Positions 10,845 through 30,482 of a stretch of DNA of 42,185 bases are shown here, piece after piece; within the stretch, counting starts at the first letter, position 1; every line of letters starts with the position of its first letter. This DNA is from Desulfobacterales bacterium (GTDB lineage Bacteria > Desulfobacterota > Desulfobacteria > Desulfobacterales > JAHEIW01). The notes beneath the pieces were generated by a model. That model made no database searches. It was not told the DNA's origin and saw nothing but the letters and a program-made list of their open reading frames with translations. The position numbers and the translations under genes were made by a program. The stretch is from positions 1 through 42,185 of the forward strand of contig JASFIX010000001.1 in NCBI GenBank assembly GCA_050122435.1, in the 5' to 3' direction.

Positions 10845-10853
10845 GGTGTTTCC

Positions 10854-11483: not shown

Positions 11484-11498
11484 ATCAACCCTGATGGC

Positions 11499-12179
11499 TT
11501 AGGATTTAGGTTTTCTCTGCCACTCCGGCGCATTGGTTACCGGTACGTGGCACTGCCGGCAATTTCCCCGAGACGGGTGTTCCACCCGAATGGTAGCTAT
11601 CGTTCCCGGTCCCACATGACAGGCAATACAGTTGGCTCGCATTTGAATTTCATGCGGAATCGGCAGTGGCGCCCCCGGCAAGGCGGCGCGTCCCAGGCGG
11701 GGTGGTGCCACACTCTGCCAGTCGGTTTCAACAAAGAGTTTGGCCTCGGTTACGGTAATATGACATTGTTGGCAGGCTTCCTGCTCGGGGTGCGGCGTAA
11801 CGGGCGTATTCTTTTTCAGCTCTTCCGTCCAGCCACCCCGGAGGTGACAGGCCAGACATTCGACTCGGGCCAGATCCGGCTCTTCGACTTTATGGGGAAT
11901 AAGCGGCGGTGACCCCGGATACTGCCTCAGGGAGTAGTATTCTTCGAGTGTGCGCCCGGTGGAAGTGCCTTCCAGGTAGTCTTTGGATACCTGGTCATAG
12001 TTTACAAAGATGGCTTTTCCGCTATTGTCAAAGTTCATGTCTTGGGATTCCGCAATGGTGGTTTCCGTTCCTTTCGGCTCGGATGAAAAAGCTGAAAGCA
12101 CAATCAGCGGCAATACCAAGATGCAGATTCCGGCGAATATCAGAAAAACCTTTCCCACTTTCTGGTCTGATTTTTCCAT
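11499..12179 (-). CDS. napB: Tandem-duplicated NapB-like tetraheme cytochrome with N-terminal hydrophobic anchor/signal
   Basis: There are two copies of the NapB pattern [P-G-x-P-x-x-I-P-H ... CxxCH ... CxQCH]. Copy 1 is YPGSPPLIPHKV..CLACH..CQQCH. Copy 2 is LPGAPLPIPHEI..CIACH..CRQCH. The start overlaps the napA stop (TAATG). Confidence 0.75.
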   Translation of the reverse strand: MEKSDQKVGKVFLIFAGICILVLPLIVLSAFSSEPKGTETTIAESQDMNFDNSGKAIFVNYDQVSKDYLEGTSTGRTLEEYYSLRQYPGSPPLIPHKVEEPDLARVECLACHLRGGWTEELKKNTPVTPHPEQEACQQCHITVTEAKLFVETDWQSVAPPRLGRAALPGAPLPIPHEIQMRANCIACHVGPGTIATIRVEHPSRGNCRQCHVPVTNAPEWQRKPKS

Positions 12180-14488
12180 TATACTCTCTCCAGTTTAACC
12201 GCACATTTTTTATAATCCGGCTGTTTGGATATGGGGCAAAACGCATCCAAAGTGGCCTCGTTGATTAAATAGCTTTCATCAAAGAAGGGCACGAAAACCA
12301 TGCCCCGGGGCGGACGCCCCCGGCCGTTGATACTGGCCTTCATTGTCACCGATCCCCGGCGGGATGAAACTTTGACTTTGCTGCCGTTGGTAATTCCCAT
12401 ACGGGCGGCATCGTCGGGGTTGATTTCCACATAGGCCTCGGGAACCGCCCGGTGCAGGACCGGCACGCGCCGGGTCATGGATCCGGTATGCCAGTGCTCC
12501 AGGATCCGTCCGGTATTGAGCCAGAAGGGATATTCGCTGTCGGGCGATTCTGCCGCCGGTTCGTAAGGCCGCAGCCATATCCAGGCCCTGCGGTCCGGCT
12601 TGCCGTAAAAATCAAAGGAATCGCCCTCGGCCGCCGGGTCGTACTTGGCGTTGTAGCGCCATTTGGTCTCTATTCCATTGACGTAGGGCCACACGATCCC
12701 GGATTTTGCTTTCAGGTCATTGTAAGGCGCCATGCGGTGCTTGGGATTGTCGTGGAACTGGATATATTCATTCCAGATGTCTTCGATGTAGGTTTCTTCT
12801 GACCAGGAGAACTGTTTTTCAAAACCCATTCGCCGGGCCACCTCGATAATCTGCCAGGTATTGCTCATGCAATCACCCGGCATGGGAATGATCTGCTCAT
12901 TGTGCTGGGTGCGCCGCTCAGAATTGCCGAAAAATCCTTCACGTTCGATCCAGAGGGCAGCCGGCAGGACCACATCGGCCACATCATAAGTGGGGGTCGG
13001 ATATATCTCGGATACCACGATGAAGCGATCGTCCTTTTTGGCGCCGTCGCGGTAGCGGTTCAGGTTGGGCATGGTAACCATGGGGTTGGTGACCTGGATC
13101 CACATGAAGCGAATGTCGCCGCGATCCAGGGCCCGGAACATTTCGACCGTATGATAGGTAGGCTTGGGATCGATATTTTCTACGGGTACGTCCCAGATCT
13201 TGGCAGCCAGCTTGCGGGCGCCTTCTTTCATGACCACGCCTTTGGGCAGCTTGTGGGTCAGGGTGCCGACCTCGCGCACCGTGCCGCAGGCGCTGGGCTG
13301 CCCGGTCAGTGAAAAGGGCCCGTTGCCCGGCTGGGAGATCTTGCCCACCAGCAAATGACAGTTGTAGACAAGGTTGTTGATCCAGGTTCCCCGGGTATGC
13401 TGGTTCATACCCATGCACCAGTAAGAGACAACCTTCTTGTCAGGGTCACCGAAAAGCGCCGCCAGATATTTAATGTCTTTGGCCGGCACACCGGACAGTT
13501 TTTCGACCTTTTCCGGTGTGTAATCCTCCAAAAAGGCCTTGAAGGTTTCAAAGTCGACCTCTTCGCCTTTGTCTTTGAACTTGAAATGGTCCTGGGTGCC
13601 GTAGCCGATATTGGTTTTACCCTTGTGAAAGGAAACATGTTTGTTGACAAAATCCCAGTTGACCCAGTCATTGCGAATGATTTCATAACAGATGGAGTTT
13701 GCCACTGCCAGATCGGTCTGGGGTCTGAAAATGATCGATTTATCTGATGCCTGGCTGGTGCGGGTGGTGCGGGTGGCAAAATCAATAATCTTGACATGAT
13801 TCTTGGCTTTGCGGTTGGCCAACATTCTGGAAAAGAGCACCGGATGCATCTCGGCCATATTGTTGCCCCAGGTAATGAAAACATCAGCCTGATCGATATC
13901 ATCATAGCTGCCCATCGGCTCGTCCATGCCGAAGCTGGTTAAAAATCCGGTCACGGCACTGGCCATGCACAAACGCGCATTGGCCTCCAGATTGTTGGTG
14001 CCGATACAGCCCTTAAACAGTTTGGCGGCAACGTAACCATCGGTAATCGACCATTGCCCGGAACCGTACATGGCAACGGAGTCCTTCCCGTGGCTTTTGA
14101 TGCTTTCCTGCATTTTGCTGGCCACCAGGTCGAGGGCTTCTTTAAGGGGCGTTTCCACCATCTTGCCGTTTTTACGAACCAGCGCCTTGGTAACTCTGTC
14201 CTTGCCATAAAGGATCTGGATGGAATGATAGCCCTTGACGCAGCACAGACCCTTGTTGACGGTACAATTGGGATCACCTTTGACGGCTACGGCGCGGTCA
14301 CCGGAAACACCGACCAAGAGGCCGCACCCGGTGCCGCAGAACCGGCAGGGCGTCTTTTTCCATTCAATCCCTCCTGAATCGACATTGTTCCAGGCGCCGA
14401 AACTGATTCCCGGAAACAGTACCGCAGCCGAAGCGACAGCGCTCTGTGTCGCTGCGGATTTGATGAATTGTCTTCTGGTAATGTCCAT
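12179..14488 (-). CDS. napA: Periplasmic nitrate reductase catalytic subunit NapA (Mo-bisPGD, Tat-exported)
   Basis: Tat motif TRRQFIK. The segments WKKTPCRFCGTGCGLLVG, GDPNCTVNKGLCCVKGY, ARLCMASAVTGF and FGMDEPMGSYDDID align closely with E. coli NapA as I remember it. Confidence 0.95.
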   Translation of the reverse strand: MDITRRQFIKSAATQSAVASAAVLFPGISFGAWNNVDSGGIEWKKTPCRFCGTGCGLLVGVSGDRAVAVKGDPNCTVNKGLCCVKGYHSIQILYGKDRVTKALVRKNGKMVETPLKEALDLVASKMQESIKSHGKDSVAMYGSGQWSITDGYVAAKLFKGCIGTNNLEANARLCMASAVTGFLTSFGMDEPMGSYDDIDQADVFITWGNNMAEMHPVLFSRMLANRKAKNHVKIIDFATRTTRTSQASDKSIIFRPQTDLAVANSICYEIIRNDWVNWDFVNKHVSFHKGKTNIGYGTQDHFKFKDKGEEVDFETFKAFLEDYTPEKVEKLSGVPAKDIKYLAALFGDPDKKVVSYWCMGMNQHTRGTWINNLVYNCHLLVGKISQPGNGPFSLTGQPSACGTVREVGTLTHKLPKGVVMKEGARKLAAKIWDVPVENIDPKPTYHTVEMFRALDRGDIRFMWIQVTNPMVTMPNLNRYRDGAKKDDRFIVVSEIYPTPTYDVADVVLPAALWIEREGFFGNSERRTQHNEQIIPMPGDCMSNTWQIIEVARRMGFEKQFSWSEETYIEDIWNEYIQFHDNPKHRMAPYNDLKAKSGIVWPYVNGIETKWRYNAKYDPAAEGDSFDFYGKPDRRAWIWLRPYEPAAESPDSEYPFWLNTGRILEHWHTGSMTRRVPVLHRAVPEAYVEINPDDAARMGITNGSKVKVSSRRGSVTMKASINGRGRPPRGMVFVPFFDESYLINEATLDAFCPISKQPDYKKCAVKLERV

Positions 14489-14512
14489 TTGCTTGCTCCT
14501 TTTGTGTGTCCT

Positions 14513-14998: not shown

Positions 14999-15186
14999 CA
15001 TACCAAAATACTATGAAATAGAAATAGGGTAAACACTGTATTTTTTAATTTTAAATACAGCATTTTAGGCAAGCGCTTCTAAAGGAAGATCAATCAAGGA
15101 GCATGAGGTGAAGTATTTTACGCATTAGAAAGTTGATGAATTCCTGGATGTGGTTTGATGCATGTGTCCCATGTATCTTTCGGTTT

Positions 15187-16092: not shown

Positions 16093-16122
16093 GCCAATAG
16101 CTTTCAGTTTACAGGAGTTAAT

Positions 16123-16617
16123 TTAAGGCTCGGTGGGAATCCACATAAGCTCCGGGTTTAGCCTATCGGTCCAGGGAATGTCCGAGTTTCGCCAGCCGTT
16201 TTTAAGACGCTTGCCGTAAAACGGACTGGAAGGATCTTTAACCCGATCGCCCTCGAAGCCGTCGGTAACCGAATAAGCAGTCTTGAAACCGGCCGATGCC
16301 ATTGCATTTACAGCGGCGGCGCTGCGGTTGCCGGAGCGGCAGATCACCAGAATCGTATCGGAGGCTTTGAATTTTCGGCTGACTTCAGCGATAAAGTTCG
16401 GGTTTACCCTCATCAAAGGTCCTTTGCTGCGTATCGCCATTTTATAATTGAACAATTGAAAGGGGATATTATGGGCCATTGGGGCATGGCCGACAAAAAT
16501 GTATTCTTCCGGCGTTCGGACATCCAGAATATTTATTTTATTTTTGTCCGCCAGCCACATTTTATAGGCTTCTTTATATCCAAATTTATCTAAAAATATC
16601 ACAAAAAATTTCGTCAT
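16123..16617 (-). CDS. Single-domain rhodanese-like sulfurtransferase
   Basis: ILDVRTPEEY...GHAP and active-site loop CRSGNRS. Start 16617 overlaps the upstream gene by 32 nt. An alternative ATG lies at 16560. Confidence 0.8.
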   Translation of the reverse strand: MTKFFVIFLDKFGYKEAYKMWLADKNKINILDVRTPEEYIFVGHAPMAHNIPFQLFNYKMAIRSKGPLMRVNPNFIAEVSRKFKASDTILVICRSGNRSAAAVNAMASAGFKTAYSVTDGFEGDRVKDPSSPFYGKRLKNGWRNSDIPWTDRLNPELMWIPTEP

Positions 16618-16915
16618 CTGCGGACATACATTGGGTCTTCAGCAGTTTATATTTGGCCAGAAGGTCTTTACCGGTCTGAGAAAGGCGCGATCCCTCTTTG
16701 CGGTCGGTATGAACAATACGGGCATTCATGTGTTTTTCAGTCGTCTTGATTTTGCTCCAGACTGCTTTGTACGACATTCTCATTAATTTAGCGGTCTGAT
16801 TCATAGAGCCCGTCTGATCAATATGCTCCAGGATTTTCGCTCGACCTTCCCCGATAATAATGTTGTTGTTTTCATCCACAATCCACTGGCTTGACCTTAA
16901 TTTGAGCTCTGCCAT
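16586..16915 (-). CDS. ModE-N-terminal-like winged-helix regulator (no Mop domains)
   Basis: 109-aa ORF. GEGRAKILEHIDQTGSMNQTAKLMRMSYKAVWSKI matches the ModE/LysR-type HTH pattern. Confidence 0.65.
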   Translation of the reverse strand: MAELKLRSSQWIVDENNNIIIGEGRAKILEHIDQTGSMNQTAKLMRMSYKAVWSKIKTTEKHMNARIVHTDRKEGSRLSQTGKDLLAKYKLLKTQCMSADDEIFCDIFR

Positions 16916-16976
16916 TGTCTATTCTCCATAAGCTGTAACTCAAAAAAATTGTTAGTACGAAAATACAAAATGGGTC

Positions 16977-17075
16977 AGGAGGCTGGAAAGCTAGGAAGCT
17001 GGAAGGCTTGGAGGCTAGAAATAATTCATCCCTTCAAGCTTTCTGGCTTCCCAGCATCCAAGCCTTCAGGCTTAG
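16977..17075. repeat. Tandem-repeat palindrome, unit GGARGCTN (period 8)
   Basis: Five units run from 16978-17017 (ggaggctg gaaagcta ggaagctg gaaggctt ggaggcta). An AT-rich spacer follows, then five complementary-type units at 17031-17070. 17002-17012 pairs perfectly with 17057-17067. Confidence 0.8.
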
Positions 17076-17080
17076 TTTAA

Positions 17081-18073
17081 TTAGCCTCCTATTGCCCGCA
17101 TAGCCCTTTGACAAGCGTTTTGATGGTCCTTGGTATTCAGATGGTGACCGGCCGGTTTTTGAGCCACCGACCGCCTGAATATGTCGATGATATCGTCTTG
17201 GGTTGCCCCGGCTCTCAGTGCGGCTTTAATATCGATTTCTTCCCTTGAAAACAAACAGGTCTTTATCTTGCCGTCAGCGGTCATCCGCAGGCGATTGCAT
17301 GAACCACAAAAATGCCAGCTGATGGGTGCAATAAAACCGACCTTTCCGACCGCACCCGGCAGCTTACAGAGTCTTGCCGGCCCGTAGGAATCTATGGCCG
17401 GCTCAATTTTAACCCGGTCAATTCGATGGATCTTCTTCATAAATTCTTCAACGGGTACAAACAATGTTTCATAGTCGCCATAGGCTGAGCTGTTGGTGGG
17501 CATTAGTTCGATAAAGCGCACATGGTAAGGCTTGGTCAGGGTTAGAGCAGCCAAATCTTCGACTTCATCATCATTGATGCCGCGCATGACCACGGTATTG
17601 ATCTTAATGGGGCGCATCCCGATCTCTTCAGCACGTTTGATGCCGGCCAGCACGCGTGGCAGCCAATTGTATCCGGTTATCTTTTCGAATCGATCCGGCT
17701 TCAACGTATCCAGGCTGACGTTGATTCTGCTGACACCGGCCTTAAATAGCGAATCGGCCATCTCTTCCAGATAAATCCCGTTGGTGGTCAGGGCCAGACT
17801 TCTTAAGCCGTCGATCTCTGAAATCATCCGACAAAATTCGACCACCCCTTTTCTGACCAGGGGCTCGCCACCGGTGATTCGGATTTTGGTGATACCGCTT
17901 GCGGCCGCTGCTTTAGCGACGTTGAGCATTTCCTCGTAGGTCAGAATCTCTGAACGCGCTAGATGACTGCGGCCTGAAAACTGCGTGCAGTAATAGCATT
18001 TCAGGTTGCAATGATCGGTTATGGATATGCGCAGGTAATCAATTTTCCGTCCGTAACTATCAACAAGTTTCAC
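17081..18073 (-). CDS. moaA: GTP 3',8-cyclase MoaA (radical SAM, Moco biosynthesis step 1)
   Basis: GTG start. DYLRISITDHCNLKCYYC radical-SAM motif and C-terminal CxxC...C cluster (CGSCNRLRMTADGKIKTCLF). Confidence 0.93.
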   Translation of the reverse strand: MKLVDSYGRKIDYLRISITDHCNLKCYYCTQFSGRSHLARSEILTYEEMLNVAKAAAASGITKIRITGGEPLVRKGVVEFCRMISEIDGLRSLALTTNGIYLEEMADSLFKAGVSRINVSLDTLKPDRFEKITGYNWLPRVLAGIKRAEEIGMRPIKINTVVMRGINDDEVEDLAALTLTKPYHVRFIELMPTNSSAYGDYETLFVPVEEFMKKIHRIDRVKIEPAIDSYGPARLCKLPGAVGKVGFIAPISWHFCGSCNRLRMTADGKIKTCLFSREEIDIKAALRAGATQDDIIDIFRRSVAQKPAGHHLNTKDHQNACQRAMRAIGG

Positions 18074-18140
18074 TGTTTTTCAGCTCCATTTCAATTGTCG
18101 GATTCGTAGCAATAAGTGTCTCACACAAGGCCGCCTTATC

Positions 18141-18245
18141 AGGTTTGCCGGTTTGCCAGTTGAGCCGGTTGAGCCCGTTAAAAAGGAATGCGATCATATA
18201 TTATTTTTAACGGGTAAACAGGCTAACGGGCAACGGGCTCAACCC
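18141..18245. repeat. Tandem-repeat palindrome, units GGTTTGCC / GTTGAGCC
   Basis: ggtttgcc x2 plus (a/g)gttgagcc x2 at 18142-18175. About 29-nt AT spacer. Complementary units at 18209-18245. Perfect 13-bp pairing of 18167-18179 with 18232-18244. Confidence 0.8.
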
Positions 18246-18273
18246 AGCATGACGCGAGTGTTAAAAACAGTTT

Positions 18274-19299
18274 CTATTTGCCGAATGGGCAATGCGGATA
18301 CAAACACTCCTCACAATCTTTACACAGCCCCCCATGGCCCAGAAACGCAAGCTCGGCCTTGCCGATTTTTTCGCCGGCTAAAATTCGCGGCAGCACCAGA
18401 TCAAGCACGGTAATGCGGTGAAACAGGCCGCAGGCCGGCACCCCCAGCAGCGGCACATCCCCCACATAAGCCACCAGAAACATGGCCCCGGGCAGCACTG
18501 ATGCTCCATAGTGCATCTCGCCGGCACCGGCAGCACGAATTCCCTGGCGGGTAACATCGTCGGGATCCACACTCATGCCGCCGCTGAGCATCAGTAAATC
18601 ACAGCCCTGCTCCAGATGGGAACGAATAGCCGATCGGATCATCTCAGCATCATCCGGTGCAAAAGCGATCCCGGCCACCTCGGAGCCCAGGGCTTTAACC
18701 TTTTCTGTCAGGATCGGCGCAAAACGGTCTTCAATCAGACCGTGGTAAACTTCGTTGCCTGTAATCACCAGTCCCACTTTTGCTTTATGGATAGGGTTCA
18801 CCGCAAGGACGGCGCCATTCTGACGGGCAATGGCTGCGGCTCGTTCGATAGGCGCGCGTTTCATGATCAACGGGATGGCACGGGTAGCCGCCACCAATTC
18901 CCCTTTTTTGACAATGGTGTGGTTGTGCAGGGTGGCGCACATGACTTCATCAACCATGTTAAAGGCAGCCAAAGCGCTGGTATTCACCGCAAACAGGCCA
19001 TCTTTTCCTGCCAGCAGCTTTATTTTTCCTTCTCGTGGCTCGTCCTTCCAAACAATGCCGTCACCGGCCAGCGCATCTGCTAAAATGGTGGCCGCCTGGT
19101 CCTCATGAATTTCGTCGTCGTCAAGGTCGATGACGAAAAGGTGATTTTTTCCCATTTTCTGAAGACGGCACAAATCTTCGTTACAGACTTCGTGCCCTTT
19201 ATGAAAGGCAGCGCCTTTGAATTCTCCGGGACGAATCTCGGTCATGTCGTGAGCTAATTTAGTACCGACGGCATCTTGCAGTTTGATCTTTTTTAGCAT
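18274..19299 (-). CDS. Molybdopterin-binding (MoCF-biosynthesis domain) protein with C-terminal Cys-rich tail
   Basis: 341-aa ORF. The central region is MogA/MoeA-domain-III-like (VGLVITGNEV...DLLMLSGGMSVDPDD). C-terminal tail is CKDCEECLYPHCPFG. Confidence 0.65.
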   Translation of the reverse strand: MLKKIKLQDAVGTKLAHDMTEIRPGEFKGAAFHKGHEVCNEDLCRLQKMGKNHLFVIDLDDDEIHEDQAATILADALAGDGIVWKDEPREGKIKLLAGKDGLFAVNTSALAAFNMVDEVMCATLHNHTIVKKGELVAATRAIPLIMKRAPIERAAAIARQNGAVLAVNPIHKAKVGLVITGNEVYHGLIEDRFAPILTEKVKALGSEVAGIAFAPDDAEMIRSAIRSHLEQGCDLLMLSGGMSVDPDDVTRQGIRAAGAGEMHYGASVLPGAMFLVAYVGDVPLLGVPACGLFHRITVLDLVLPRILAGEKIGKAELAFLGHGGLCKDCEECLYPHCPFGK

Positions 19300-19380
19300 T
19301 GTTGGACTCCCTTTGTGTAGATACCATTGACCTTGTTTAAATGTATCTGTGCTTTTTCTCTCCAGGTGTTTTTTTGACCG

Positions 19381-20058
19381 TTAATAGCAATTCGTTTCAA
19401 TAATTTCTGCGTCTTTGTGGGTTTGCGTATGGTTGTCTCCCGGTTTCCAGTTCATATCCGGCCAGGTCACCTCGCAGGCATCTGAAAAATAGGTTTCCTG
19501 GGTGCAGGGCCGGCAGAGAACCGCCCCATCCTGAACGACCTCGCGCTGATCGCGCACGATCTGGCCGCAGCGGCTGCATGGGATCTTATAACGGGTCGGT
19601 CCGGGTAGATCACAGTCATCGATTTTCACTCTGACCTCCTGTACCCGAAATAGGACGCTGTCGGGCATACGTTTGTATGCTTCCAACTGCTGAGGGTGTT
19701 TTTCAGCAATTTCAGGTGCATAAGCGCTGGCCAGATTGCGGGCCGCTTCCGTGGAGACCACCCGAAAGGCCTTACCGGTGTCAAGATTGACGAAGGTAGC
19801 GGCCATAATGCCGTAATCCATGAATTTCAATGAGCGCCGTCCCAGTTTAACACCGGTAACATGGGCCACCGCATCGGCGGTGCATCGGTCCATCTCCACA
19901 TAGACAATCAACTTTTTAATTTGATCATGGCGCTTAGGCTCGTCCAGTCCAATCAGCCGACAGCCCAGCATGGCCATGCGGACGCCCACCACCTGCCCGG
20001 GGCAAAGGTGGCCGTGGGCGTCAGCTGAACTTTCTAGCAGAACTTCAAAGGTTTCCAT
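19381..20058 (-). CDS. FmdE-family protein with C-terminal zinc-ribbon
   Basis: Hallmark HGHLCPGQVVGVRMA plus CSRCGQ...CRPC. I place the start at ATG 20058, which has an aaagga SD. The track's GTG at 20184 reads through the repeat. Confidence 0.8.
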   Translation of the reverse strand: METFEVLLESSADAHGHLCPGQVVGVRMAMLGCRLIGLDEPKRHDQIKKLIVYVEMDRCTADAVAHVTGVKLGRRSLKFMDYGIMAATFVNLDTGKAFRVVSTEAARNLASAYAPEIAEKHPQQLEAYKRMPDSVLFRVQEVRVKIDDCDLPGPTRYKIPCSRCGQIVRDQREVVQDGAVLCRPCTQETYFSDACEVTWPDMNWKPGDNHTQTHKDAEIIETNCY

Positions 20059-20081
20059 GATCTGTGCTGTCCTTTCTTCAA

Positions 20082-20175
20082 CAGGTTTCAGGTGTCGGGT
20101 GTCAGGTGTCAGATCTGATCGGTCTGAAATTTCTGCGCGTCGGATGCTGAACACCGAAACCTGACACCTGAACAC
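20082..20175. repeat. Tandem-repeat palindrome, unit GGTGTCA (period 7)
   Basis: Units ggtttca ggtgtcg ggtgtca ggtgtca run from 20084-20111. A 36-nt spacer follows, then tgaacac cgaaacc tgacacc tgaacac at 20148-20175. It sits in the 5' leader of the FmdE-like gene. Confidence 0.8.
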
Positions 20176-20193
20176 TTTTGCCACATGGTGGCA

Positions 20194-20211
20194 TATGTTA
20201 AAATTAACATA
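20194..20211. promoter_or_regulatory. 18-bp palindrome, candidate operator
   Basis: tATGTTAAaaTTAACATa has perfect 8-bp arms. It is adjacent to a second small palindrome, gccacATGgtggc (20180-20192). Confidence 0.3.
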
Positions 20212-20272
20212 ACAGACGGCAAAAAAAATTCAGAAGTAGGGTCGGTTATAGCCTTTAAAGCCATCTATGTCT

Positions 20273-20286
20273 TTGACCTGGGTCAA
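20273..20286. promoter_or_regulatory. Second CRP/FNR-type box TTGAC-N4-GTCAA
   Basis: gtctTTGACctggGTCAAgac lies about 215 nt upstream of the FmdE-like start and 39 nt downstream of the CMD gene stop. Confidence 0.4.
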
Positions 20287-20324
20287 GACAACTGACAGTT
20301 TCCTAATATTTCTGCAATTAGAGG

Positions 20325-20636
20325 TCAAGAACCTTCCAGCACTTCATCCACCCAGCCCAAGGCCGCAATCATGTTCGGAAAACCGATGGTTGTCAATGAT
20401 AATAATACGACGTGGACGATTTCTTCCTGGCTGGCACCGGATTCCAGGGCCTTGCGGGTTTGGGACATCACCGCTCCGCGGGAATTGGCCCCAATGGCAA
20501 TACCCAGATTGGCCAGGTTCTGGTATTTTTCCTCAAGCGGCCCGGACTCCCGGCAGGTCTTGCCTAACTGTTGATAATCTTTAAATACTTCCGGAAATTT
20601 CGACGAGAACTTTTCGTAAATTTTAGGAAGATACAT
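20325..20636 (-). CDS. Carboxymuconolactone-decarboxylase (AhpD-like) family protein, no Cys
   Basis: I place the start at ATG 20636, with AAGGAG 6 nt upstream. The track's TTG at 20654 is less likely. The helical CMD-like core is EEKYQNLANLGIAIGANSRGAV. Confidence 0.75.
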   Translation of the reverse strand: MYLPKIYEKFSSKFPEVFKDYQQLGKTCRESGPLEEKYQNLANLGIAIGANSRGAVMSQTRKALESGASQEEIVHVVLLSLTTIGFPNMIAALGWVDEVLEGS

Positions 20637-20676
20637 GATCGCTCCTTTTTGCAAAAATTTCGAATTACGATTCTCA

Positions 20677-21369
20677 TTACACCTGGAGCGAATTTATTTC
20701 AACGTGTTTTTCTGAATTCTCCTGGCCGGTTTCAAGAACCCTACAAACAACCCGGTAATTTTCATTTAAAAACGCTGTAGTTGCTTTTGCCAGATTCGGA
20801 TAAAACGGATTTTCTGCATTTTCGATGATACTGTTGGCAAATTCCGGCACCCAGGCCATCAGGTGATCTTCCAGGAAAGATTTCTGCCTCTGAATAAAAC
20901 CGATGGCCGTTTCGATGTCGGAGCTGGCGAACGCTTCGATTTCTTTAAAAATCAAATAGTACATAAATTCGAGTTCAGCGCTGATGTGGTCGGGCGCATC
21001 TTTAAATGTCTTGGCTGTATCCAGGCCTGCTTCCCTGTATCTGTTTTTTACGTCCTGGGTTGAGTTGCCCATCATTTTTCTTTCGCTCTCTAAATACACC
21101 GAACCGTAAGGTGCCGCCGACAGCGTATACGGGCCGACAAACAGTTTTGAAAAATCGATTTTTAAGGGCTCAAGATCAGCACCGGCTTCGAATTCTTTGC
21201 ACATATTCTGGATTAACGGGACCGCCGCTTCGCACACATTTCCCATGTTGAATTCCAGGGTTTTCAATTTCTCAGATAATCCCGGATTCGGCAAAAAAAA
21301 GCAGTCGCTCAATAATCGAAATGCCGTCATTCGATGCGATTCACGGCTCAACAGGTTTTTTGTTCTCAT
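20677..21369 (-). CDS. arrD: TorD/DmsD-family redox-enzyme maturation chaperone (ArrD-like)
   Basis: 230-aa ORF. The segments FSKLFVGP...APYGSVYLE and PDHISAELEFMYYL are typical of the TorD family. It lies downstream of the Mo-enzyme genes. Confidence 0.75.
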   Translation of the reverse strand: MRTKNLLSRESHRMTAFRLLSDCFFLPNPGLSEKLKTLEFNMGNVCEAAVPLIQNMCKEFEAGADLEPLKIDFSKLFVGPYTLSAAPYGSVYLESERKMMGNSTQDVKNRYREAGLDTAKTFKDAPDHISAELEFMYYLIFKEIEAFASSDIETAIGFIQRQKSFLEDHLMAWVPEFANSIIENAENPFYPNLAKATTAFLNENYRVVCRVLETGQENSEKHVEINSLQV

Positions 21370-21407
21370 AGTTTTCTCTTGGGTTGGTTAAATGTGGTTT
21401 AATTAAT

Positions 21408-21438
21408 GCGATGCCGGCCGCTTTCCAGCCGGCATCGC
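21408..21438 (-). other. GC-rich perfect hairpin between arrC and arrD
   Basis: gcgatgccggc (21408-18) pairs with gccggcatcgc (21428-38) around a 9-nt loop. No U-tract follows on the transcribed strand. Confidence 0.5.
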
Positions 21439-21450
21439 ACGTGTTGTGTT

Positions 21451-22566
21451 TTACTCCGGAACTTCAGACAGTTTCAGGTTTCGTTCTCCCAGGGTGTATA
21501 CGAACAACAGCGCAGCCAGTGCAGAAACAAAAACAAACACTTCCCAGATTGTGGGCCAGTAACCCACAAACAGGGGCTGTCCTTCGGCCTTGGGACCTGT
21601 GGGCATCACCAGACCGCTGAGTACCATTTCCAGGCGTCCGGCAAACATGCCGATCAAAAACAAAGCCGCAGCGGTAACTTTACCCCAGACGGCCTGTCGT
21701 GCAGAGGGCGTGGCAAGCAATAGAAGCGGGATGACCAATCCCGCCCACAAGGCAAGGTGGTACCACCCTGAGCTCAACATATGCCTGAATCCGGCAAATT
21801 CGACCGCTGTCGCCGACGCGCCGCCCACGATCGTTCGCCATAGGAAAAAAATCAGCGTCAAAACCATAACAACGCCAAACAGATTACTCAGGTCGTCATA
21901 AAGGTTTTTGTCCCCGTCGCTCAAGGGAATCTCGGCAAAATGATGGTAGGCCAGGCTGAATAACAACACGGCAGCCAGCGCGCTGCCAAATCCGGTCAGC
22001 GGAAAATACATGGCTAAAAAGTTTGCGTTGTACGCCGGCCTTGCATCCGGAAGCCCAAAGAGCCAGCCCAGTGCGGTGGAGGTGGCAATCGCAATACTGA
22101 ATGTGAATATGCCAAGCCCCTTGCTGACCTGGCCTTTATGCATTTTGCCAAATGATAAGAGCAGTACAATCAGGTAAAGCCCATAGAGCATACCCAGCCA
22201 CCATAGAGGTGAGGCCGGGTTTGGGGATATTATGTAATAGATAACATTCCATGGCGATCCGAGATGTAATAACAAACAGGTAAAAGCAGCCACCAATACG
22301 GCGATTTCTAAAAATGCGGTCCTTTTTTCAAGGGGCTGGTAGCGCTTGATATTAAAAACCACGGGAATGGATGAGACAAAGGCAAGTCCTGAGCTTGTCA
22401 GTGAGAAAAAAACATAGGCTGCGATGGGCATGGTCCAGACCAATATATCCGTTTTGGCATACAGGACAAAGCCGGTGCTGATTAACACTCGATACGCGGT
22501 GAGCAGACCGAGCAGAATCCCCAACACAAGTAATCCATACCACAATTGAACTTTAATTGCTTTCAT
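21451..22566 (-). CDS. arrC: NrfD-family membrane anchor (ArrC-like)
   Basis: 371-aa polytopic membrane ORF. Its start abuts the arrB stop. Confidence 0.75.
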   Translation of the reverse strand: MKAIKVQLWYGLLVLGILLGLLTAYRVLISTGFVLYAKTDILVWTMPIAAYVFFSLTSSGLAFVSSIPVVFNIKRYQPLEKRTAFLEIAVLVAAFTCLLLHLGSPWNVIYYIISPNPASPLWWLGMLYGLYLIVLLLSFGKMHKGQVSKGLGIFTFSIAIATSTALGWLFGLPDARPAYNANFLAMYFPLTGFGSALAAVLLFSLAYHHFAEIPLSDGDKNLYDDLSNLFGVVMVLTLIFFLWRTIVGGASATAVEFAGFRHMLSSGWYHLALWAGLVIPLLLLATPSARQAVWGKVTAAALFLIGMFAGRLEMVLSGLVMPTGPKAEGQPLFVGYWPTIWEVFVFVSALAALLFVYTLGERNLKLSEVPE

Positions 22567-23295
22567 CTATATCCCCCCTTTCGTTCTTTGATAGTGTGCG
22601 GGATTAAAACTGCGAATATAATAGACGTTCGGCTGAGTGCCGAGCCGCTCTTTGCGACGGTACGGTTTGTATTTTCCTAAAAGCCGGTTCACCTTGCTGT
22701 CCGGCTTTTCCAGATCTCCAAATACCCGGGCATCAGAAGGACAGGCCTCAACACAGTAAGGAATCTCACCCTCCTTGATTCTGTGATCGCAAAAGGTGCA
22801 CTTTTCAACCACGCCCTTGGGTCTGTTCTCCGGAAGTGTTTTCCCCCTGGATGGATTGCTGTAAGGCGTTCCGTTTCCGTTGTTGACTTTCCGGGCTATT
22901 TCCTTCGGCGAACTTGTGCCGCCCTCGATGACCGGCCGAGTATCCCTCCAGAATTTGTGGGGGGCCTGCCAGTTGAAATAGATTACCTCATAGGGGCAAT
23001 TGTACATGCAGTACCGGCAGCCGATGCATTTGTCGGGATCATGCATGGTGATGCCGTTATCCAGCTTGTGCATGGCCTTTGTCGGGCAACCCGTTACGCA
23101 CGGGGGATCTGAACAGTGGTTGCAAAGCGTCGGCAGATAGTGAAACCGCACATTTGGGAACGTGCCGGAAGTTTCGGTTATTTTGCTGGACCAGTAGATG
23201 CCATCCTGCACATTGTTCTCGTTTCGACAGGCAATGCTGCAGGCCCCGCACCCGACACATCGCTGTAAATCTATTACCATTGCATATTTAGGCAT
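22567..23295 (-). CDS. arrB: 4x[4Fe-4S] electron-transfer subunit (ArrB-like)
   Basis: MVIDLQRCVGCGACSIACR, CNHCSDPPCVTGCP, CIGCRYCMYNCP and CTFCDHR...CVEACP. Confidence 0.85.
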   Translation of the reverse strand: MPKYAMVIDLQRCVGCGACSIACRNENNVQDGIYWSSKITETSGTFPNVRFHYLPTLCNHCSDPPCVTGCPTKAMHKLDNGITMHDPDKCIGCRYCMYNCPYEVIYFNWQAPHKFWRDTRPVIEGGTSSPKEIARKVNNGNGTPYSNPSRGKTLPENRPKGVVEKCTFCDHRIKEGEIPYCVEACPSDARVFGDLEKPDSKVNRLLGKYKPYRRKERLGTQPNVYYIRSFNPAHYQRTKGGI

Positions 23296-23305
23296 TTTTC
23301 ACCTC

Positions 23306-25891
23306 CTAAACTTTTTCGATTTTAATGCGGGTGGTCGCATAGAATGCCGTGCTCCCACTCAAACGATCATACTGGGCCGGGATGAGGTCGTTGCTGCTGC
23401 CTCCCCGGGGAACTTTGCCGAAAACTTTGGACGCCACCCGTCCGTAGGCCCAGTGGCCCTGACCATAGCACTTGGCGATCGTACCGGGTCTGACGCCTTC
23501 CCATAAGCTTGCCGTACAGGTCAGGCTTCCGGTCGGAGACGTCAGCTTCACTTTATCGCCATTTTTGATGCCGAGTGGCTTGGCGTCTCTGGGGTTGATC
23601 TTGGCCACATCTTCCCAGGGCACATCACCGGGATCGAGATCCTTAAAATCATGATACCAGGTACAGTTGGCCGAGCGGCCTTCACGGTTAAGTCTGGATT
23701 TGTAATCCACATGGATGAATGGGAAGTCTTTTTCATCACCGGCGATAAACGGTTCTTCATAATGCGGCACAAAGGCAGTTTCACCACGCGCCAGGTAATT
23801 GCAAACTTCCAGAACATTGTCGACGCTGGTGTTATGCTTCTCCGCATGCTTTTCGAGGGCCACCTTCAGGGTTTCGCTGTAGAATTCAAACTTTTTGGTT
23901 TTGGTTTTCATGTTGCCCCAGCGCTTGCGATAGGGATAGGGCTTGGAATTCCAGACGCCGGCTTTGAGAAAATCCTCCCAGCCGCTGAATTTGTCACCCC
24001 CTTTGTATTTGGCCGGATCCCACAGGTTCTGAGTGGCATATTTAAGAGAATAAAGTGCAAATTCTTTTTCGTTGGTCGGGGCTTTGCCGGTCTCCGGATC
24101 CTTATAGGCCTTGAAGTGCTCGAGCAGATTGCTAAAACCTCTTTCCGCCAGCTTTTCGGCGATCAACCAGGGAATTTCGGTTTCATCGATCTTGGAATCG
24201 CCCACCGGCTTGATAATCGGCTGCATGAGGGTCACGTGCCGGTATCCGTTGCCCATGGCTTTGACATACCCCCACTTTTCAAACATATGATGGGTGTCGG
24301 GTAGCAGAATATCGGCGAACCAGGAATACTCGGACGCGTTGGTGGTGATGTGCACCAGAAAAGGAATCTTGGCCAGCGCCCGCTCCCAGCGTTCCGGTTG
24401 CGGGCAGGAGAAGGCAAAGTTGTTCATGTAACCGATCGCCACTTTGATTTCATTGGGATCCGCGTTCAGAATACCGTCGGCCGCATTGTTGGTGACCACC
24501 CCGCCGCCCGATTTACCTTTGTTCAGCGCGGGAAACTCCAGCCGGCCGCGATGATCGATTTTTTTATGCTTTTTGCCTGCCTTGGCGATTTCGTCCATCC
24601 AATCGTCGGGTTTCGGAAACTTGGAGGTGTATTCCTTGTTGCTCTTCTGTGTGCCGCCGACATTATCCACCCCCCCGACGATGCCGTTTAAAGCATGCAC
24701 CGCCATGGCAGCGTATCCGCCGCGCACCTGCATGCAGGGCCCGCCGCCCAGCCATGAAATGGCGTGGGGTGCCGCCTGGCCGTAACCGATCGCCACCCGT
24801 TTGATCTGGTCGACCGGCAGGTCGGTTATTTTGGCCGCCCACTCCGGTGTTTTGTCTTTCAGCTCCAGATTCCACCAGGTGACAATGCCGTTGGTGTGTA
24901 TTTCTTCAAACAATTCAGGATCGACATCCTGTCCGGCCACAAAGCGGTTTTCGCCATCGATAAAATCGCCGACGAAATCTTTGTACCAGAGCCCCTCGGT
25001 GAGCAGAACATGGGCGATGGCCACTGCCAGTGCACCGTCGGTTCCGGGTTTGAGCGGCATCCATTCATCGGCTTTGGCTGCGGTAGCGGATAGGCGCGGC
25101 TCGGCGATTGCAATCGTGGCTGAATCAATCGCATCTCCCCAAGCAGACGAGTAGTAGGACACCTGACGGTTGGCTGCCAGGGGATCGGCGCCCCATAATA
25201 TAATGTACCGGGCCCTTTTAACATCGTACTGCCGGTACCCCCAGTAGCCCTCCGTATAGTAAGGGCCGAATTTTTCGGCTTCGGCGCAGATGGCACTGTG
25301 GGAAATGTTGTTGGGCGAGCCGATGATTTTGGTCATGCGGTCATAGAGAACATCGCGCATGTACGAATAACGACCGCGCATGAGCATATACTTGTGGGTT
25401 TCGTTGTTGTTTCTGAGCTCCATGATCTTATCTGCAATTGTGCTCAGGGCTTCATCCCAGGAAATTGGCACAAATTTCGGATCTTCATTGCGCCCTTTTT
25501 GGGGATTGGTCCGTTTCATGGGGGTTTTGATCCGATCCGGGTCATAAACCTGCTGCAAGGCAAGATGGACGCGTGGACAACTCGCCTCTCCATTCACCTT
25601 AGAATTCGGATTTCCCCGGACTTTCACCGCCCTGCCATCGACGACGTAAACCTGTTTGGAACACCAGGACGTACATCCCTGACAGGTGGCCGCTTTCCAC
25701 TCGCCCGCTCCACCGCCGGTGGTCTCGCTGGCTTCCGCCAGGGTTTTCAGCGCCGGTTTGAAAGACGTACCGAGTACAACCGCACCACCGGTGGCGGCTG
25801 AGGCGCCTTTAATGAAAGATCTTCTTGAAATTTTGTAATCATTTAGAAAATCTTTCATCATGCCTTCTTTTTTGTTCTGTTTCATCTCCAT
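23306..25891 (-). CDS. arrA: Tat-exported Mo-bisPGD oxidoreductase catalytic subunit, arsenate respiratory reductase ArrA-like
   Basis: Tat motif SRRSFIKG. Fe-S motif C-x2-C-x3-C-x27-C (CQGCTSWC...CPR). RGRY motif at MLMRGRYSY. GLWYKDFVGDF and KTPEWAAKIT match the peptide targets of the classic arrA primers (GVWNKAFVGDF, TPEWAPEITG) at the expected spacing. The start may be ATG 25885 rather than 25891. Confidence 0.8.
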   Translation of the reverse strand: MEMKQNKKEGMMKDFLNDYKISRRSFIKGASAATGGAVVLGTSFKPALKTLAEASETTGGGAGEWKAATCQGCTSWCSKQVYVVDGRAVKVRGNPNSKVNGEASCPRVHLALQQVYDPDRIKTPMKRTNPQKGRNEDPKFVPISWDEALSTIADKIMELRNNNETHKYMLMRGRYSYMRDVLYDRMTKIIGSPNNISHSAICAEAEKFGPYYTEGYWGYRQYDVKRARYIILWGADPLAANRQVSYYSSAWGDAIDSATIAIAEPRLSATAAKADEWMPLKPGTDGALAVAIAHVLLTEGLWYKDFVGDFIDGENRFVAGQDVDPELFEEIHTNGIVTWWNLELKDKTPEWAAKITDLPVDQIKRVAIGYGQAAPHAISWLGGGPCMQVRGGYAAMAVHALNGIVGGVDNVGGTQKSNKEYTSKFPKPDDWMDEIAKAGKKHKKIDHRGRLEFPALNKGKSGGGVVTNNAADGILNADPNEIKVAIGYMNNFAFSCPQPERWERALAKIPFLVHITTNASEYSWFADILLPDTHHMFEKWGYVKAMGNGYRHVTLMQPIIKPVGDSKIDETEIPWLIAEKLAERGFSNLLEHFKAYKDPETGKAPTNEKEFALYSLKYATQNLWDPAKYKGGDKFSGWEDFLKAGVWNSKPYPYRKRWGNMKTKTKKFEFYSETLKVALEKHAEKHNTSVDNVLEVCNYLARGETAFVPHYEEPFIAGDEKDFPFIHVDYKSRLNREGRSANCTWYHDFKDLDPGDVPWEDVAKINPRDAKPLGIKNGDKVKLTSPTGSLTCTASLWEGVRPGTIAKCYGQGHWAYGRVASKVFGKVPRGGSSNDLIPAQYDRLSGSTAFYATTRIKIEKV

Positions 25892-25946
25892 ATTACCTCC
25901 CTTCTTATCAACTGCCTTATTTAAAGATGATCCAAAAATTAATGAG

Positions 25947-26336
25947 TTAATGAGTTGATGTTCTACTGGAATTCACTTGATTTTCACCGATCGAGCGTAA
26001 CCAAAAAAACAGCTCGTCCGCATCGATCGGTCGATTGAGACAAGCATAGATATGATGGCTGATGGCATCCTTTAATTCAGGGTGTAAAGGCTGTTTGGAT
26101 AGACAAAAGAAATATACCCTCGGGAATTTTCGAGCGAGTTCCCTCACCGTTCGATTATCGACGGGGACGGTATCGATATCCCACAATATTGCCTGGCACC
26201 CAGTGTCTTTGATTTTTTCTTCTAAATTATGAGTTGAATATTGTGAGACGACTTTAAATTGACTCGCTTTCAGCAGTTCACACAGTTCCCGGCCCTGTTC
26301 TTTGTCGGCATCGATCACTAATATTGATTTCTTCAC
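25947..26336 (-). CDS. Stand-alone CheY-like receiver protein
   Basis: KKSILVIDAD...ILWDID...FFCLSKQ...CLNRP. I prefer GTG 26336, with AAGGAG 11 nt upstream, over the track's TTG at 26453. A sigma54 promoter lies inside that longer extension. Confidence 0.65.
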   Translation of the reverse strand: MKKSILVIDADKEQGRELCELLKASQFKVVSQYSTHNLEEKIKDTGCQAILWDIDTVPVDNRTVRELARKFPRVYFFCLSKQPLHPELKDAISHHIYACLNRPIDADELFFWLRSIGENQVNSSRTSTH

Positions 26337-26408
26337 TCGCTCACGGGCTCCTTGAACGAATTCGGCTGTAAATATAGGGGAAGAACAAAGATATTTATAC
26401 CACGATGT

Positions 26409-26425
26409 AGCAATGAATATGCCAG
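26409..26425 (-). promoter_or_regulatory. Sigma54 (-24/-12) promoter
   Basis: The minus strand reads cTGGCAtattcaTTGCt. GG and GC have canonical spacing, and it matches the TGGCAC-N5-TTGCW consensus well. It lies about 75 nt upstream of the receiver GTG. Confidence 0.65.
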
Positions 26426-26558
26426 AGCGAAAACGAAATGGGCAGGTGTTCAATTTGGTAACCTATGATTGGGGGACTTAGATTTAATCAACTGAAATTT
26501 ATATAAAAAATTTCTTGGAGCATAAAGGAAGATCAAAAATTAATTTTTATTGGAGGGT

Positions 26559-26703
26559 TGAATTTTAAACTGGAATTTCTTGAATCTGTACGAATTGCTG
26601 ACAGGAAAAACGGTGATATGTTGGATTCTCATTCATATTAAAAGGTTAGCTGTGTATGAATTCCGGACACAGAATTCGGCCGCGGACACATTCATGCCCA
26701 CAC
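26559..26703. promoter_or_regulatory. Cluster of ATGAAT/ATTCAT and GGACACA motifs, candidate enhancer (UAS) region
   Basis: ATTCAT at 26631-36 and 26690-95. ATGAAT at 26656-61, with another copy inside the sigma54 promoter at 26413-18. TGAAT at 26559-63 and 26581-85. GGACACA at 26665-71 and 26684-90. TGTGT-N11-ACACA at 26651-71. Confidence 0.35.
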
Positions 26704-26737
26704 TGTTTCGCAGAAAGCCCTATGAAGAGGACTAAAA

Positions 26738-27112
26738 TTATAATATTGACTGAAAAACCTCACAGGATCGACAGATCTTCATTTTCTCTTTCCAATCCTT
26801 TTGGCTTATTCCTTCACAGATGGTTCCATTGATAAACCAGCAGAGATCGCCGGAGCCAAACTCCCAGGCCGTACAATCGCTTTTCCGCTCAGGAGGACAA
26901 TTTTTCACAAGCCAGCACGGCTTTGGCTTTTTGCCTTTTTGTTCTAATCTGGAAAGCAGGAAAAAGATCTGACGCTCAACATGCACCGGCACCGTTCGCC
27001 AGCCCTGTTCGTAGCTGTGAATGGCTTTCAGTGAGGTTCCAAGCAATGCAGCCATCTGCTTTTGAGTTTTGTTCAGCCGATTTCGGTATTTTTTAAATTC
27101 CTGTTTGTTCAT
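26738..27112 (-). CDS. XRE-type HTH regulator fused to a C-terminal 7-Cys domain with two CW motifs
   Basis: N-terminus LNKTQKQMAALLGTSLKAIHSYEQG. C-terminus PCWLVKNC...DCTAWEFGSGDLCWFINGTICEG...KICRSCEVF. It lies 12 nt downstream of the sigma54 activator gene. Confidence 0.8.
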   Translation of the reverse strand: MNKQEFKKYRNRLNKTQKQMAALLGTSLKAIHSYEQGWRTVPVHVERQIFFLLSRLEQKGKKPKPCWLVKNCPPERKSDCTAWEFGSGDLCWFINGTICEGISQKDWKEKMKICRSCEVFQSIL

Positions 27113-27124
27113 GATCGTTTATTC

Positions 27125-29323
<2,199 letters not shown>

Positions 29324-29327
29324 TCGA

Positions 29328-30287
29328 TTATTCCTCCAGCGAAGCAATTTTTAGTTCTATATTACGGATACTGTCGTACCAGGCATCCTGCGTTGGAGTG
29401 AAACGATCGATCATTAATTCCTCCAGAATCTCTTGTCCCCTGGGGTCGCTGTGCATCGTAAAAAGTACCCGGCGAATACGATGTTTTAACTCGGATGCTA
29501 GAAAAGGTGATGCGACAATGGGCGGAATGCCGTAGGGTTCTGATTTGCGAATGATGCGGGTTTTGGAAGTGAAAATCGGATTTTTGCGGTGGTAATAGTC
29601 CCATATCAGGCTGTCGATTGCGGCCCCGTCCACCAGGGATTTGGCCACGGCCAGAATAGAGTTATCATGGCTGTAAGTGTAAATGGTTTTGTTAAAAAAT
29701 GTCTCGGGCCGCTCTCCCATCTGGCTGAGCCAATAAGTGGGCACCAGTTTGCCGGTATTGGAATCCGGATCGGTAAATGCAAAAACCTGCCCCCTGAGGT
29801 CATTCAGATTTCGAAAGCGGCTGGTCTTGTTGACAATCAAATAAGATTGGTAAAAATGGCTATTCTGAACCTCGGGAGTTGCCAGCAACTCAAATCCGTA
29901 CTTTTCCTTGCCGACGACATAAGGCCCCGAGCAGATAAAGGCCAAATCAATCTGACCCTTACCCAGTAATTCATTAATTTCAGCATAGGTTTTACGTTGA
30001 ATAAACTGAACCTCTCTACCAAGACGATGCCCGATATAATCTAAAAGCTGTCTATAATAAACAAACGTGTCTTTTGGAGAGATCATGGCAGCGACGGCCA
30101 TCCTGAAAGGAGGGTTTTCAAGCGTCTGTTTTCCCGGCTGCTCGATAACTACGGTTTTGGAAAAATCCACCACCCGGGCATCGGTTTCACCGCCGCAGGC
30201 ATACAGAAAAAACAGGCCGGCGGAAACGGCCAGGCATGATATCAAAAAGCTAATTCTAAATTTGAATTGATGCTCGATGGAATCCAT
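29328..30287 (-). CDS. PhnD-family (phosphonate-bd fold) periplasmic oxyanion-binding lipoprotein, ArrX/AioX-like, with no cognate ABC permease or ATPase
   Basis: Lipobox LFFLYAC. TYAEINELLGKGQIDLAF, FTDPDSNTG and SHDNSILAV...VDGAAIDS are typical of PhnD-like binding proteins. I place the start at ATG 30287. Confidence 0.8.
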   Translation of the reverse strand: MDSIEHQFKFRISFLISCLAVSAGLFFLYACGGETDARVVDFSKTVVIEQPGKQTLENPPFRMAVAAMISPKDTFVYYRQLLDYIGHRLGREVQFIQRKTYAEINELLGKGQIDLAFICSGPYVVGKEKYGFELLATPEVQNSHFYQSYLIVNKTSRFRNLNDLRGQVFAFTDPDSNTGKLVPTYWLSQMGERPETFFNKTIYTYSHDNSILAVAKSLVDGAAIDSLIWDYYHRKNPIFTSKTRIIRKSEPYGIPPIVASPFLASELKHRIRRVLFTMHSDPRGQEILEELMIDRFTPTQDAWYDSIRNIELKIASLEE

Positions 30288-30482
30288 AAGCGGCCTCACT
30301 GAAGAACGAACTTTTAGAATGAAGGGCAATCTGCGCAGGATCAAACTTATCAGAGGCGATTGTTGGATTATAGATAGATGCCACATAGTGGTAGGTAATG
30401 TCAATAAAAATATGGAAAATTAACAGGCTGGCTCATGGGACATTGAACAATTTGTGATTCAGGAACGATATGAGAGCATTCC

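Follow-up and report, generated by a model that had tools for sequence, protein, structure and literature searches.

The window analyzed here is contig JASFIX010000001.1 of a Desulfobacterales metagenome-assembled genome (MAG; GenBank assembly GCA_050122435.1), taken at its whole length of 42,185 nucleotides (nt), and the region under study lies on its minus strand from position 25891 to position 20677. This region contains four co-directional open reading frames (ORFs), designated arrA, arrB, arrC, and arrD. arrA (23306..25891) encodes a protein of 861 amino acids (aa) that is assigned as the catalytic subunit of a respiratory arsenate reductase, a molybdenum-bis(pyranopterin guanine dinucleotide) (Mo-bisPGD) enzyme predicted to be exported by the twin-arginine translocation (Tat) system. 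arrB (22567..23295) encodes a 242-aa electron-transfer subunit with four [4Fe-4S] clusters and without a signal peptide. arrC (21451..22566) encodes a 371-aa integral membrane subunit of the NrfD family with about 10 helices, which is presumed to be the menaquinol-oxidizing anchor, and arrD (20677..21369) encodes a 230-aa maturation chaperone of the TorD/DmsD type, which binds Tat leaders. The successive genes are separated by 10, 0, and 81 nt, all four reading frames are intact, and good Shine-Dalgarno sequences precede arrA, arrB, and arrC. An earlier reading of this DNA, made from its letters and referred to here as the original prediction, had proposed a four-gene arrABCD operon, and the limits that it gave coincide exactly with the outer ends of the four minus-strand ORFs.

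ArrA scores 1305 bits on the NCBIfam ArrA model and 258 bits on the next family, PhsA (cut-off, 694 bits), with the PhsA, DmsA, and TtrA models all at or below 258 bits, and it contains the Fe4S4, molybdopterin, and dinucleotide-binding domains of Pfam. In a sequence search of the PDB, the top match is ArrA of Shewanella sp. ANA-3 (6cz7_A) at 1163.6 bits, in an alignment that covers the window protein from residue 60 through the C terminus with single-residue insertions and deletions only, and the second-best match is the Thermus polysulfide reductase (2vpw_A) at 150 bits. The original prediction had named a Tat signal, a C-x2-C-x3-C-x27-C iron-sulfur motif, an RGRY motif, and a likely Mo-ligand cysteine within HSAICAE as hallmarks of ArrA, and each of these was located at a defined position in the protein. 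The Tat leader SRRSFIK occupies residues 22 to 28, with the Pfam TAT_signal model giving 20.8 bits, slightly below its cut-off of 22.7. The motif of the FS0 iron-sulfur cluster starts with CQGCTSWC at residue 70 and comprises Cys70, Cys73, Cys77, and Cys105; exactly 27 residues separate the last two, and the cysteine columns are invariant in the alignment. RGRY lies at residues 172 to 175, and HSAICAE begins at residue 198, which makes Cys202 the Mo ligand. The peptides GLWYKDFVGDF and KTPEWAAKIT, which had been put about 48 residues apart and linked to the standard arrA primers, are indeed present at residues 300 and 347, but their starts are 47 residues apart; together they span 171 nt. The primers target the VGDF and TPEW peptides and yield an amplicon of 160 to 200 bp, and their match to this ArrA is presumed.

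According to two papers citing the structure of the ANA-3 enzyme, (R/K)GRY at ANA-3 residues 163 to 166 is diagnostic of Arr and XGRGWG is diagnostic of Arx (PMC6549141, PMC13685797), and the second paper names residues 189, 193, 198, and 210 (ANA-3 numbering) as further active-site residues of Arr (PMC13685797). In the ungapped part of the sequence alignment to 6cz7_A, the chain index plus 40 gives the ANA-3 number and the chain index plus 49 gives the number in the window protein. Arg163, Gly164, Arg165, Tyr166, His189, Ser190, Cys193, Lys198, and Tyr210 of ANA-3 thereby correspond to Arg172, Gly173, Arg174, Tyr175, His198, Ser199, Cys202, Lys207, and Tyr219 of the window ArrA, with Cys193 and Cys202 being the Mo ligands. 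Ser190 is added here as an active-site residue and is outside the published list given above. All nine positions are identical in the two proteins and the active-site region aligns without gaps, so that the comparison with the Shewanella ArrAB structure, which had been proposed as a check on the assignment, favors Arr. In a 49-row alignment, the combined signature RGRYHSCKY is present in 26 of the 30 labelled Arr rows (the query, 3 Shewanella or Psychromonas rows, and 22 others), and it is altered in the Arx-like rows and in the Phs/Psr-like rows.

For phylogenetic analyses, 150 representatives at 50% clustering, 80 named genomic loci, and 7 Mo-enzyme paralogues of the same genome were gathered, and trees were built with FastTree (77 rows) and with IQ-TREE under LG+G4 (49 rows). 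Proteins scoring best on PhsA (the Phs/Psr-like rows) served as the outgroup; the Phs/Psr-like groups were set by NCBIfam scores and the Arx-like group by its GRGWG-type motif, the trees being without named ArxA, TtrA, and SrrA sequences. Both trees place the window ArrA in the Arr clade with 100% support and a stem of 0.43 to 0.45 substitutions per site. In the IQ-TREE analysis this clade comprises 31 rows, including Shewanella, with a Shimodaira-Hasegawa-like approximate likelihood ratio (SH-aLRT) of 100 and a stem of 0.45, and the clade mates of the window protein include those of Shewanella, Psychromonas, Desulfosporosinus, Geobacter, Halorubrum, and others. The Arx-like group, which includes P0155 (FGRGWG; 37% identical to the window ArrA), lies outside. 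A maximum-likelihood tree had been suggested as the decisive check, and it locates the protein inside the Arr clade and outside both the Arx-like and the Phs/Psr-like groups. An Arx placement was rejected, with a cost of 468 log-likelihood units when it was forced and an approximately unbiased (AU) test p value of 1e-4; membership in Arx is likewise rejected by the presence of RGRY instead of XGRGWG and by the rejection of a common clade. Membership in Psr/Phs was rejected by the PhsA score of 258 bits against a cut-off of 694 and by the position of the Phs/Psr-like rows as the outgroup.

The other three subunits agree with what the original prediction had called them, namely, a four-cluster ArrB, an NrfD-type ArrC, and a TorD-type ArrD. 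ArrB, whose gene starts 10 nt after arrA, scores 331 bits on the NCBIfam ArrB model and 297 bits against 6cz7_B of the PDB, with all cluster cysteines aligned, and its 16 cysteines fall into four ferredoxin-type motifs. ArrC matches the Pfam NrfD family at 79 bits (cut-off, 25.8), and a PDB sequence search with it gave no match. An AlphaFold model of ArrC built with 21 homologues has a mean predicted local distance difference test (pLDDT) value of 85, a predicted template modeling (pTM) score of 0.88, and about 10 long helices; in Foldseek comparisons it reaches query-normalized template modeling (TM) scores of 0.78 to 0.82 to ActC of alternative complex III (ACIII) and a target-normalized TM score of 0.67 to PsrC (2vpw_C). 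By this polytopic model, ArrC has the NrfD/ActC/PsrC fold, and menaquinol oxidation by it is presumed. ArrD matches Pfam PF02613 (Nitrate_red_del/TorD) at 118 bits and the NCBIfam TorD model at 83 bits, and in the PDB it matches DmsD with an E value of 5e-10 and DmsD and TorD structures together with E values of 5e-10 to 1e-6. As a separate observation, two ArrC lineages occur among closely similar arr operons (loci L012 to L040), with identities of 47 to 93% within and 34 to 44% between lineages; in one pair (L014 and L040), the ArrA proteins are 86% identical and the ArrC proteins are 38% identical. These sequence comparisons suggest an exchange of the membrane anchor between lineages.

The locus very probably represents an Arr-type respiratory arsenate reductase operon encoding a membrane-anchored, periplasm-facing enzyme that is predicted to be functional. 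The direct basis of this assignment is the gene content, the family membership, the active-site conservation, the phylogeny, and the conserved synteny and promoter described below. From these features we infer the activity of the enzyme, its direction in vivo, its quinol donor, its regulation, and growth of the organism on arsenate.

Regulatory genes and a candidate promoter lie upstream of arrA on the same strand. A small receiver-like gene (25947..26336, with a probable GTG start at 26336) is located directly before arrA; its match to PF00072 is weak (E = 6e-4, below the cut-off), and homologues with 30 to 50% identity directly precede arrA in 19 related loci. It is the first gene after a sigma-54 -24/-12 promoter (26409..26424, minus strand; TGGCAT-N5-TTGCT), which is oriented toward the receiver and arrABCD genes. 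The pattern TGGCAY-N5-TTGCW has a single match in the 42-kb window against 0.19 expected over the whole window, and in 17 of the 19 related loci a GGCA-N7-TGC box precedes the receiver-like gene by 70 to 150 nt, with varying spacer bases. Sites resembling sigma-70 promoters and intrinsic terminators occurred at chance level in our scans, and the 3' end of the operon is not set by them. Further upstream, 27125..29347 (minus strand) encodes a membrane-anchored activator with HAMP, sigma-54 AAA+, and Fis-type helix-turn-helix (HTH) domains (Sigma54_activat at 247 bits plus HAMP and HTH_8 in Pfam), which is the presumed arr regulator and is kept between arrX and arr in related loci. Upstream of it is an arrX-like gene for a periplasmic oxyanion-binding sensor (29328..30404, minus strand; Pfam Phosphonate-bd, 224 bits), which in the PDB scores highest against ArrX of Chrysiogenes arsenatis (207 bits, compared with 159 bits for the arsenite sensor AioX). 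ArrX binds arsenate (PMC5908839). No histidine kinase is encoded in the arr cluster. A gene for an XRE-HTH, Cys-rich protein (26738-27112, minus strand) between the activator and the promoter is particular to this window, with no homologue at that position in 18 loci of the same layout; one related locus (L030) carries a homologue upstream of arrX on the opposite strand.

These components suggest the following mechanism. In the cytoplasm, ArrD would stay bound to the Tat leader of apo-ArrA pending the insertion of Mo-bisPGD and the FS0 cluster. The folded ArrA would then be exported by the Tat system and carry along ArrB, itself lacking a signal peptide, as a passenger. ArrAB may dock on the NrfD-type ArrC. 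There menaquinol would give up its electrons, which would pass along the four [4Fe-4S] clusters of ArrB to FS0 of ArrA and on to the Mo center at Cys202. Arsenate would be held by Arg174, Tyr175, His198, Ser199, Lys207, and Tyr219 and reduced to arsenite at Mo. Transcription is predicted to start from the sigma-54 promoter upstream of the receiver-like gene, and it is probably switched on by the binding of arsenate to the ArrX-like protein, which may signal to the adjacent membrane sigma-54 activator.

To compare the gene neighborhood, the window proteins were searched by tblastn against 80 related loci. Desulfobacterales-type loci conserve the order arrX, activator, receiver, arrA, arrB, arrC, and arrD, and dozens of independent assemblies share this gene order. 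Rearranged arr orders (B-A-D, B-C-A-D, and C-B-A-D) were observed in five loci (L024, L029, L076, L032, and L078), whose hosts are Omnitrophota, Brocadiaceae, Phycisphaerales, Bacteroidetes, and Halorubrum and which lie in or near the subclade of the window ArrA. Downstream of arrD in the window are a gene for an FmdE-like protein (19381..20184), a gene for a MoCF-domain protein (18274..19299), and moaA (17081..18073; NCBIfam, 371 bits against a cut-off of 284), all on the minus strand and forming a molybdenum cofactor (Moco) accessory set at 17081..20184, in which a molyb_syn domain was also matched. FmdE-like, MoCF-domain, and MoaA genes often follow arrD in Desulfobacterales-type loci, and they do so in the same order in eight of the loci compared (L012, L014, L018, L022, L030, L031, L040, and L068). 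A TauE-like gene (15187-16092, minus strand) keeps its order with these Moco genes downstream of arrD in several related loci, and the whole set resembles a cofactor module that moves together with arr. A 109-aa ORF directly after arrD (20325..20654, minus strand) resembles the AhpD/carboxymuconolactone decarboxylase family, a label given by eye from its translation. Homologues follow arrD in the close loci L018 and L068 (69 to 70% identity) and also in L042, L050, L051, and L067, which are distant arr loci, and the ORF is a possible member of the operon. At approximately 19963-20613, the summed contig depth in four wetland runs rises from about 10 to 30 up to 490 to 1650, with many loose contig ends at 20079-20114, a sign that a dispersed repeat separates the FmdE-like gene from the AhpD-like ORF.

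The window also carries napA for a periplasmic nitrate reductase (12179..14488, minus strand), which scores 977 bits on the NCBIfam NapA model (cut-off, 904). The original prediction had placed the operon next to a nitrate reductase and Moco genes; both are genuine and the Moco set is linked to arr in relatives, but nap lies 6.2 kb from arr on this contig and is unlinked to arr in relatives. Because no NapA-level match occurs within 10 kb of arrA in any of the 80 related loci, the proximity of arr and nap is particular to this contig, and nap is considered to be outside the arr system. The nap cluster itself (8607-14488, minus strand) is unusual in that napA is followed by genes for two four-heme cytochromes c (226 and 209 aa), for a DsrO-like Fe-S protein that at 192 bits stays below its cut-off of 200, and for an NrfD protein above the NCBIfam DsrP cut-off (394 versus 350 bits).

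The MAG consists of 665 contigs, with 78.7% completeness and 3.7% contamination. It encodes an Acr3 arsenite efflux protein at 464 bits, which is above the cut-off, and MenA of menaquinone synthesis. The model for thioredoxin-type ArsC gave only a match below the cut-off on this genome, and dsrA was represented by a match of only 25 residues, which at 78.7% completeness is no proof of absence. The nearest ArrA homologues are encoded by MAGs of Desulfobacterales, Desulfosarcina, and "delta proteobacterium" and by the Olavius Delta 3 symbiont. Proteins of Methanoperedenaceae, Anaerolineaceae, Omnitrophota, Brocadiaceae, Phycisphaerales, Bacteroidetes, and SAR324, at 69 to 75% identity, fall into the same ArrA subclade, and the span of one subclade across these taxa at such identities points to horizontal transfer of arr. 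Within the same GTDB order, ArrA-level matches (856 to 1342 bits) are present in 41 of the 301 species genomes sampled (approximately 14%), distributed over 24 of 155 genera, and in the genus of the host, five of the seven other species have one. The locus recurs at 95 to 100% identity in four wetland metagenome runs from 2020, and all of 11500-31000 is covered by contigs of these four other runs at the same identities; these Logan contigs are at most 1.4 kb long, so that every bin is covered but the contiguity of arr, Moco genes, and nap is beyond their reach.

Several points weigh against the assignment of a working arsenate-respiring system. The window ArrA, at 1305 bits, is below the cut-off of 1600 of the NCBIfam ArrA equivalog model NF041714. 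On the same model, the Shewanella saliphila protein scores 1732 bits, and other members of the Arr clade score 1287 (Methanoperedenaceae), 1255 (Psychromonas), 1151 (Desulfosporosinus), 1068 (Halorubrum), and 1017 bits (Geobacter). Because Shewanella alone reaches the cut-off among the Arr-clade proteins tested, this value delimits Shewanella-type ArrA and not the Arr clade. The fit of the threshold to Shewanella-type ArrA also accounts for the vague names of the public homologues, which at up to 95% identity are called "molybdopterin-dependent oxidoreductase" or "anaerobic selenocysteine-containing dehydrogenase". In addition, no RNA run is listed for the locus, and no rpoN turned up in the MAG; at 78.7% completeness, this is no proof of its absence. 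Arsenate reduction and growth on arsenate are predicted from sequence both for this organism and for its whole immediate ArrA subclade, and the statement that the organism respires arsenate is a genomic prediction from a 79%-complete MAG. Finally, Arr and Arx enzymes are reportedly bidirectional in vitro (PMC13685797), which bears on the direction of the reaction in vivo.

This reversibility, together with the complete napA cluster on the same contig, would allow an enzyme that is Arr by descent to run in reverse and, in an Arx-like manner, to oxidize arsenite and pass electrons through the quinone pool to the nearby Nap. We consider this quite unlikely, as the protein has RGRY and not XGRGWG and belongs to the Arr clade and not to the Arx-like clade, and the encoded sensor is closer to the arsenate-binding ArrX than to the arsenite-binding AioX. 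MenA further suggests menaquinone, which in the literature is tied to Arr rather than Arx, and the lack of linkage between nap and arr in relatives also speaks against such a coupling. A second alternative, that this Arr-clade enzyme acts mainly on a different oxyanion (for instance, antimonate, selenate, or a sulfur compound; compare Psr, Phs, Ttr, and Srr), draws on the tendency of the dimethyl sulfoxide (DMSO) reductase family to shift substrates among close relatives, on the unmet NCBIfam cut-off, and on the predicted status of arsenate specificity in the subclade. It appears very unlikely in view of the arsenate-contacting residues, all of which are identical to those of the crystallized enzyme, the PhsA, DmsA, and TtrA scores, none of which exceeds 258 bits while the ArrA model gives 1305, the exclusion of a Phs/Psr placement by the tree, and the ArrX-type sensor encoded in the cluster. 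An assembly or binning artifact or a decaying, unexpressed remnant, which the fragmented MAG (665 contigs, 78.7% complete, 3.7% contamination) and the lack of a listed RNA run might suggest, can be dismissed as extremely improbable given the four intact genes, three of which (arrA, arrB, and arrC) have good ribosome-binding sites, the gene order repeated in dozens of independent assemblies, and the full coverage of 11500-31000 by four other runs at 95 to 100% identity.

With an Arr-type arsenate reductase as the preferred reading, the operon is a further copy of a well-known enzyme type that automatic annotation has left unnamed, in an uncultured wetland relative of sulfate reducers. The enzyme and its mechanism are already known, and the value of the finding lies in annotation and ecology and not in a new kind of system. 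Respiratory arsenate reduction frees arsenite from sediments into water, and arrA is the accepted marker of this process. Wetland Desulfobacterales may contribute to arsenic mobilization, and arrA transcripts from Deltaproteobacteria have been documented in nature (PMC5607362). Because none of the 41 matches in the order reaches the NCBIfam cut-off, surveys that use standard annotation are expected to undercount arrA. A broader reading, for which the arguments seem to us about evenly balanced, is that the window represents a distinct Desulfobacterales-type cassette (an arrX-like sensor, a kinase-less membrane sigma-54 activator, a receiver-like gene, arrABCD, and the FmdE/MoCF/MoaA genes) that has moved horizontally into archaea, Chloroflexota, and Planctomycetota, with ArrC swapped between two lineages, and that about one-seventh of the species of the order are unrecognized arsenate respirers. 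If this is true, arsenate respirers of wetlands and sediments are being missed by pipelines that label the enzyme "molybdopterin oxidoreductase."

The window operon shares features with several known systems. The crystallized ArrAB of Shewanella sp. ANA-3 (PDB 6CZ7-6CZA) is alike in fold family, length, Tat leader, FS0 motif, Mo-ligand cysteine, RGRY motif, and active site, and all 16 cluster cysteines of its ArrB are kept in the window ArrB; ArrA proteins of Shewanella species are approximately 57 to 58% identical to the window ArrA. In contrast, Shewanella has arrAB only, with electrons supplied by CymA (PMC2762525), whereas the window operon adds an NrfD-type ArrC and a TorD-type ArrD and is predicted to be regulated differently, by an ArrX-type sensor and a sigma-54 activator. 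ArxA of the Alkalilimnicola ehrlichii type belongs to a sister group within the DMSO reductase family and has operons of the arxB'AB-C-D style with an X-type periplasmic sensor; it differs in having XGRGWG where the window protein has RGRY, the Arx-like P0155 is only 37% identical, and the AU test rejects a common clade. PsrABC and PhsABC (PDB 2VPW) likewise combine a Mo subunit, a four-cluster ferredoxin, and an NrfD-type anchor, and the modeled ArrC superposes on PsrC, but the window ArrA scores 150 bits against 2vpw_A versus 1163 against ArrA, and these enzymes have another active-site signature and form a separate clade. Clusters of arrABCD in which ArrC is NrfD-like, ArrD is TorD-like, and an ArrX sensor is present have already been described (PMC13685797). 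Those of "Ca. Methanoperedenaceae" and related bacterial MAGs share the arrA-B-C-D order, RGRY, and an ArrX-type protein nearby (PMC13685797), and ArrA of the MAG Kmv03 is 75% identical to the window ArrA and belongs to the same subclade, whereas ArrA of "Ca. M. nitroreducens," an experimentally shown arsenate reducer, belongs to another subclade (PMC13685797). In the clusters of that study, ArrX is accompanied by a response regulator and a histidine kinase, while the window and the other Desulfobacterales-type loci have one membrane HAMP sigma-54 activator instead.

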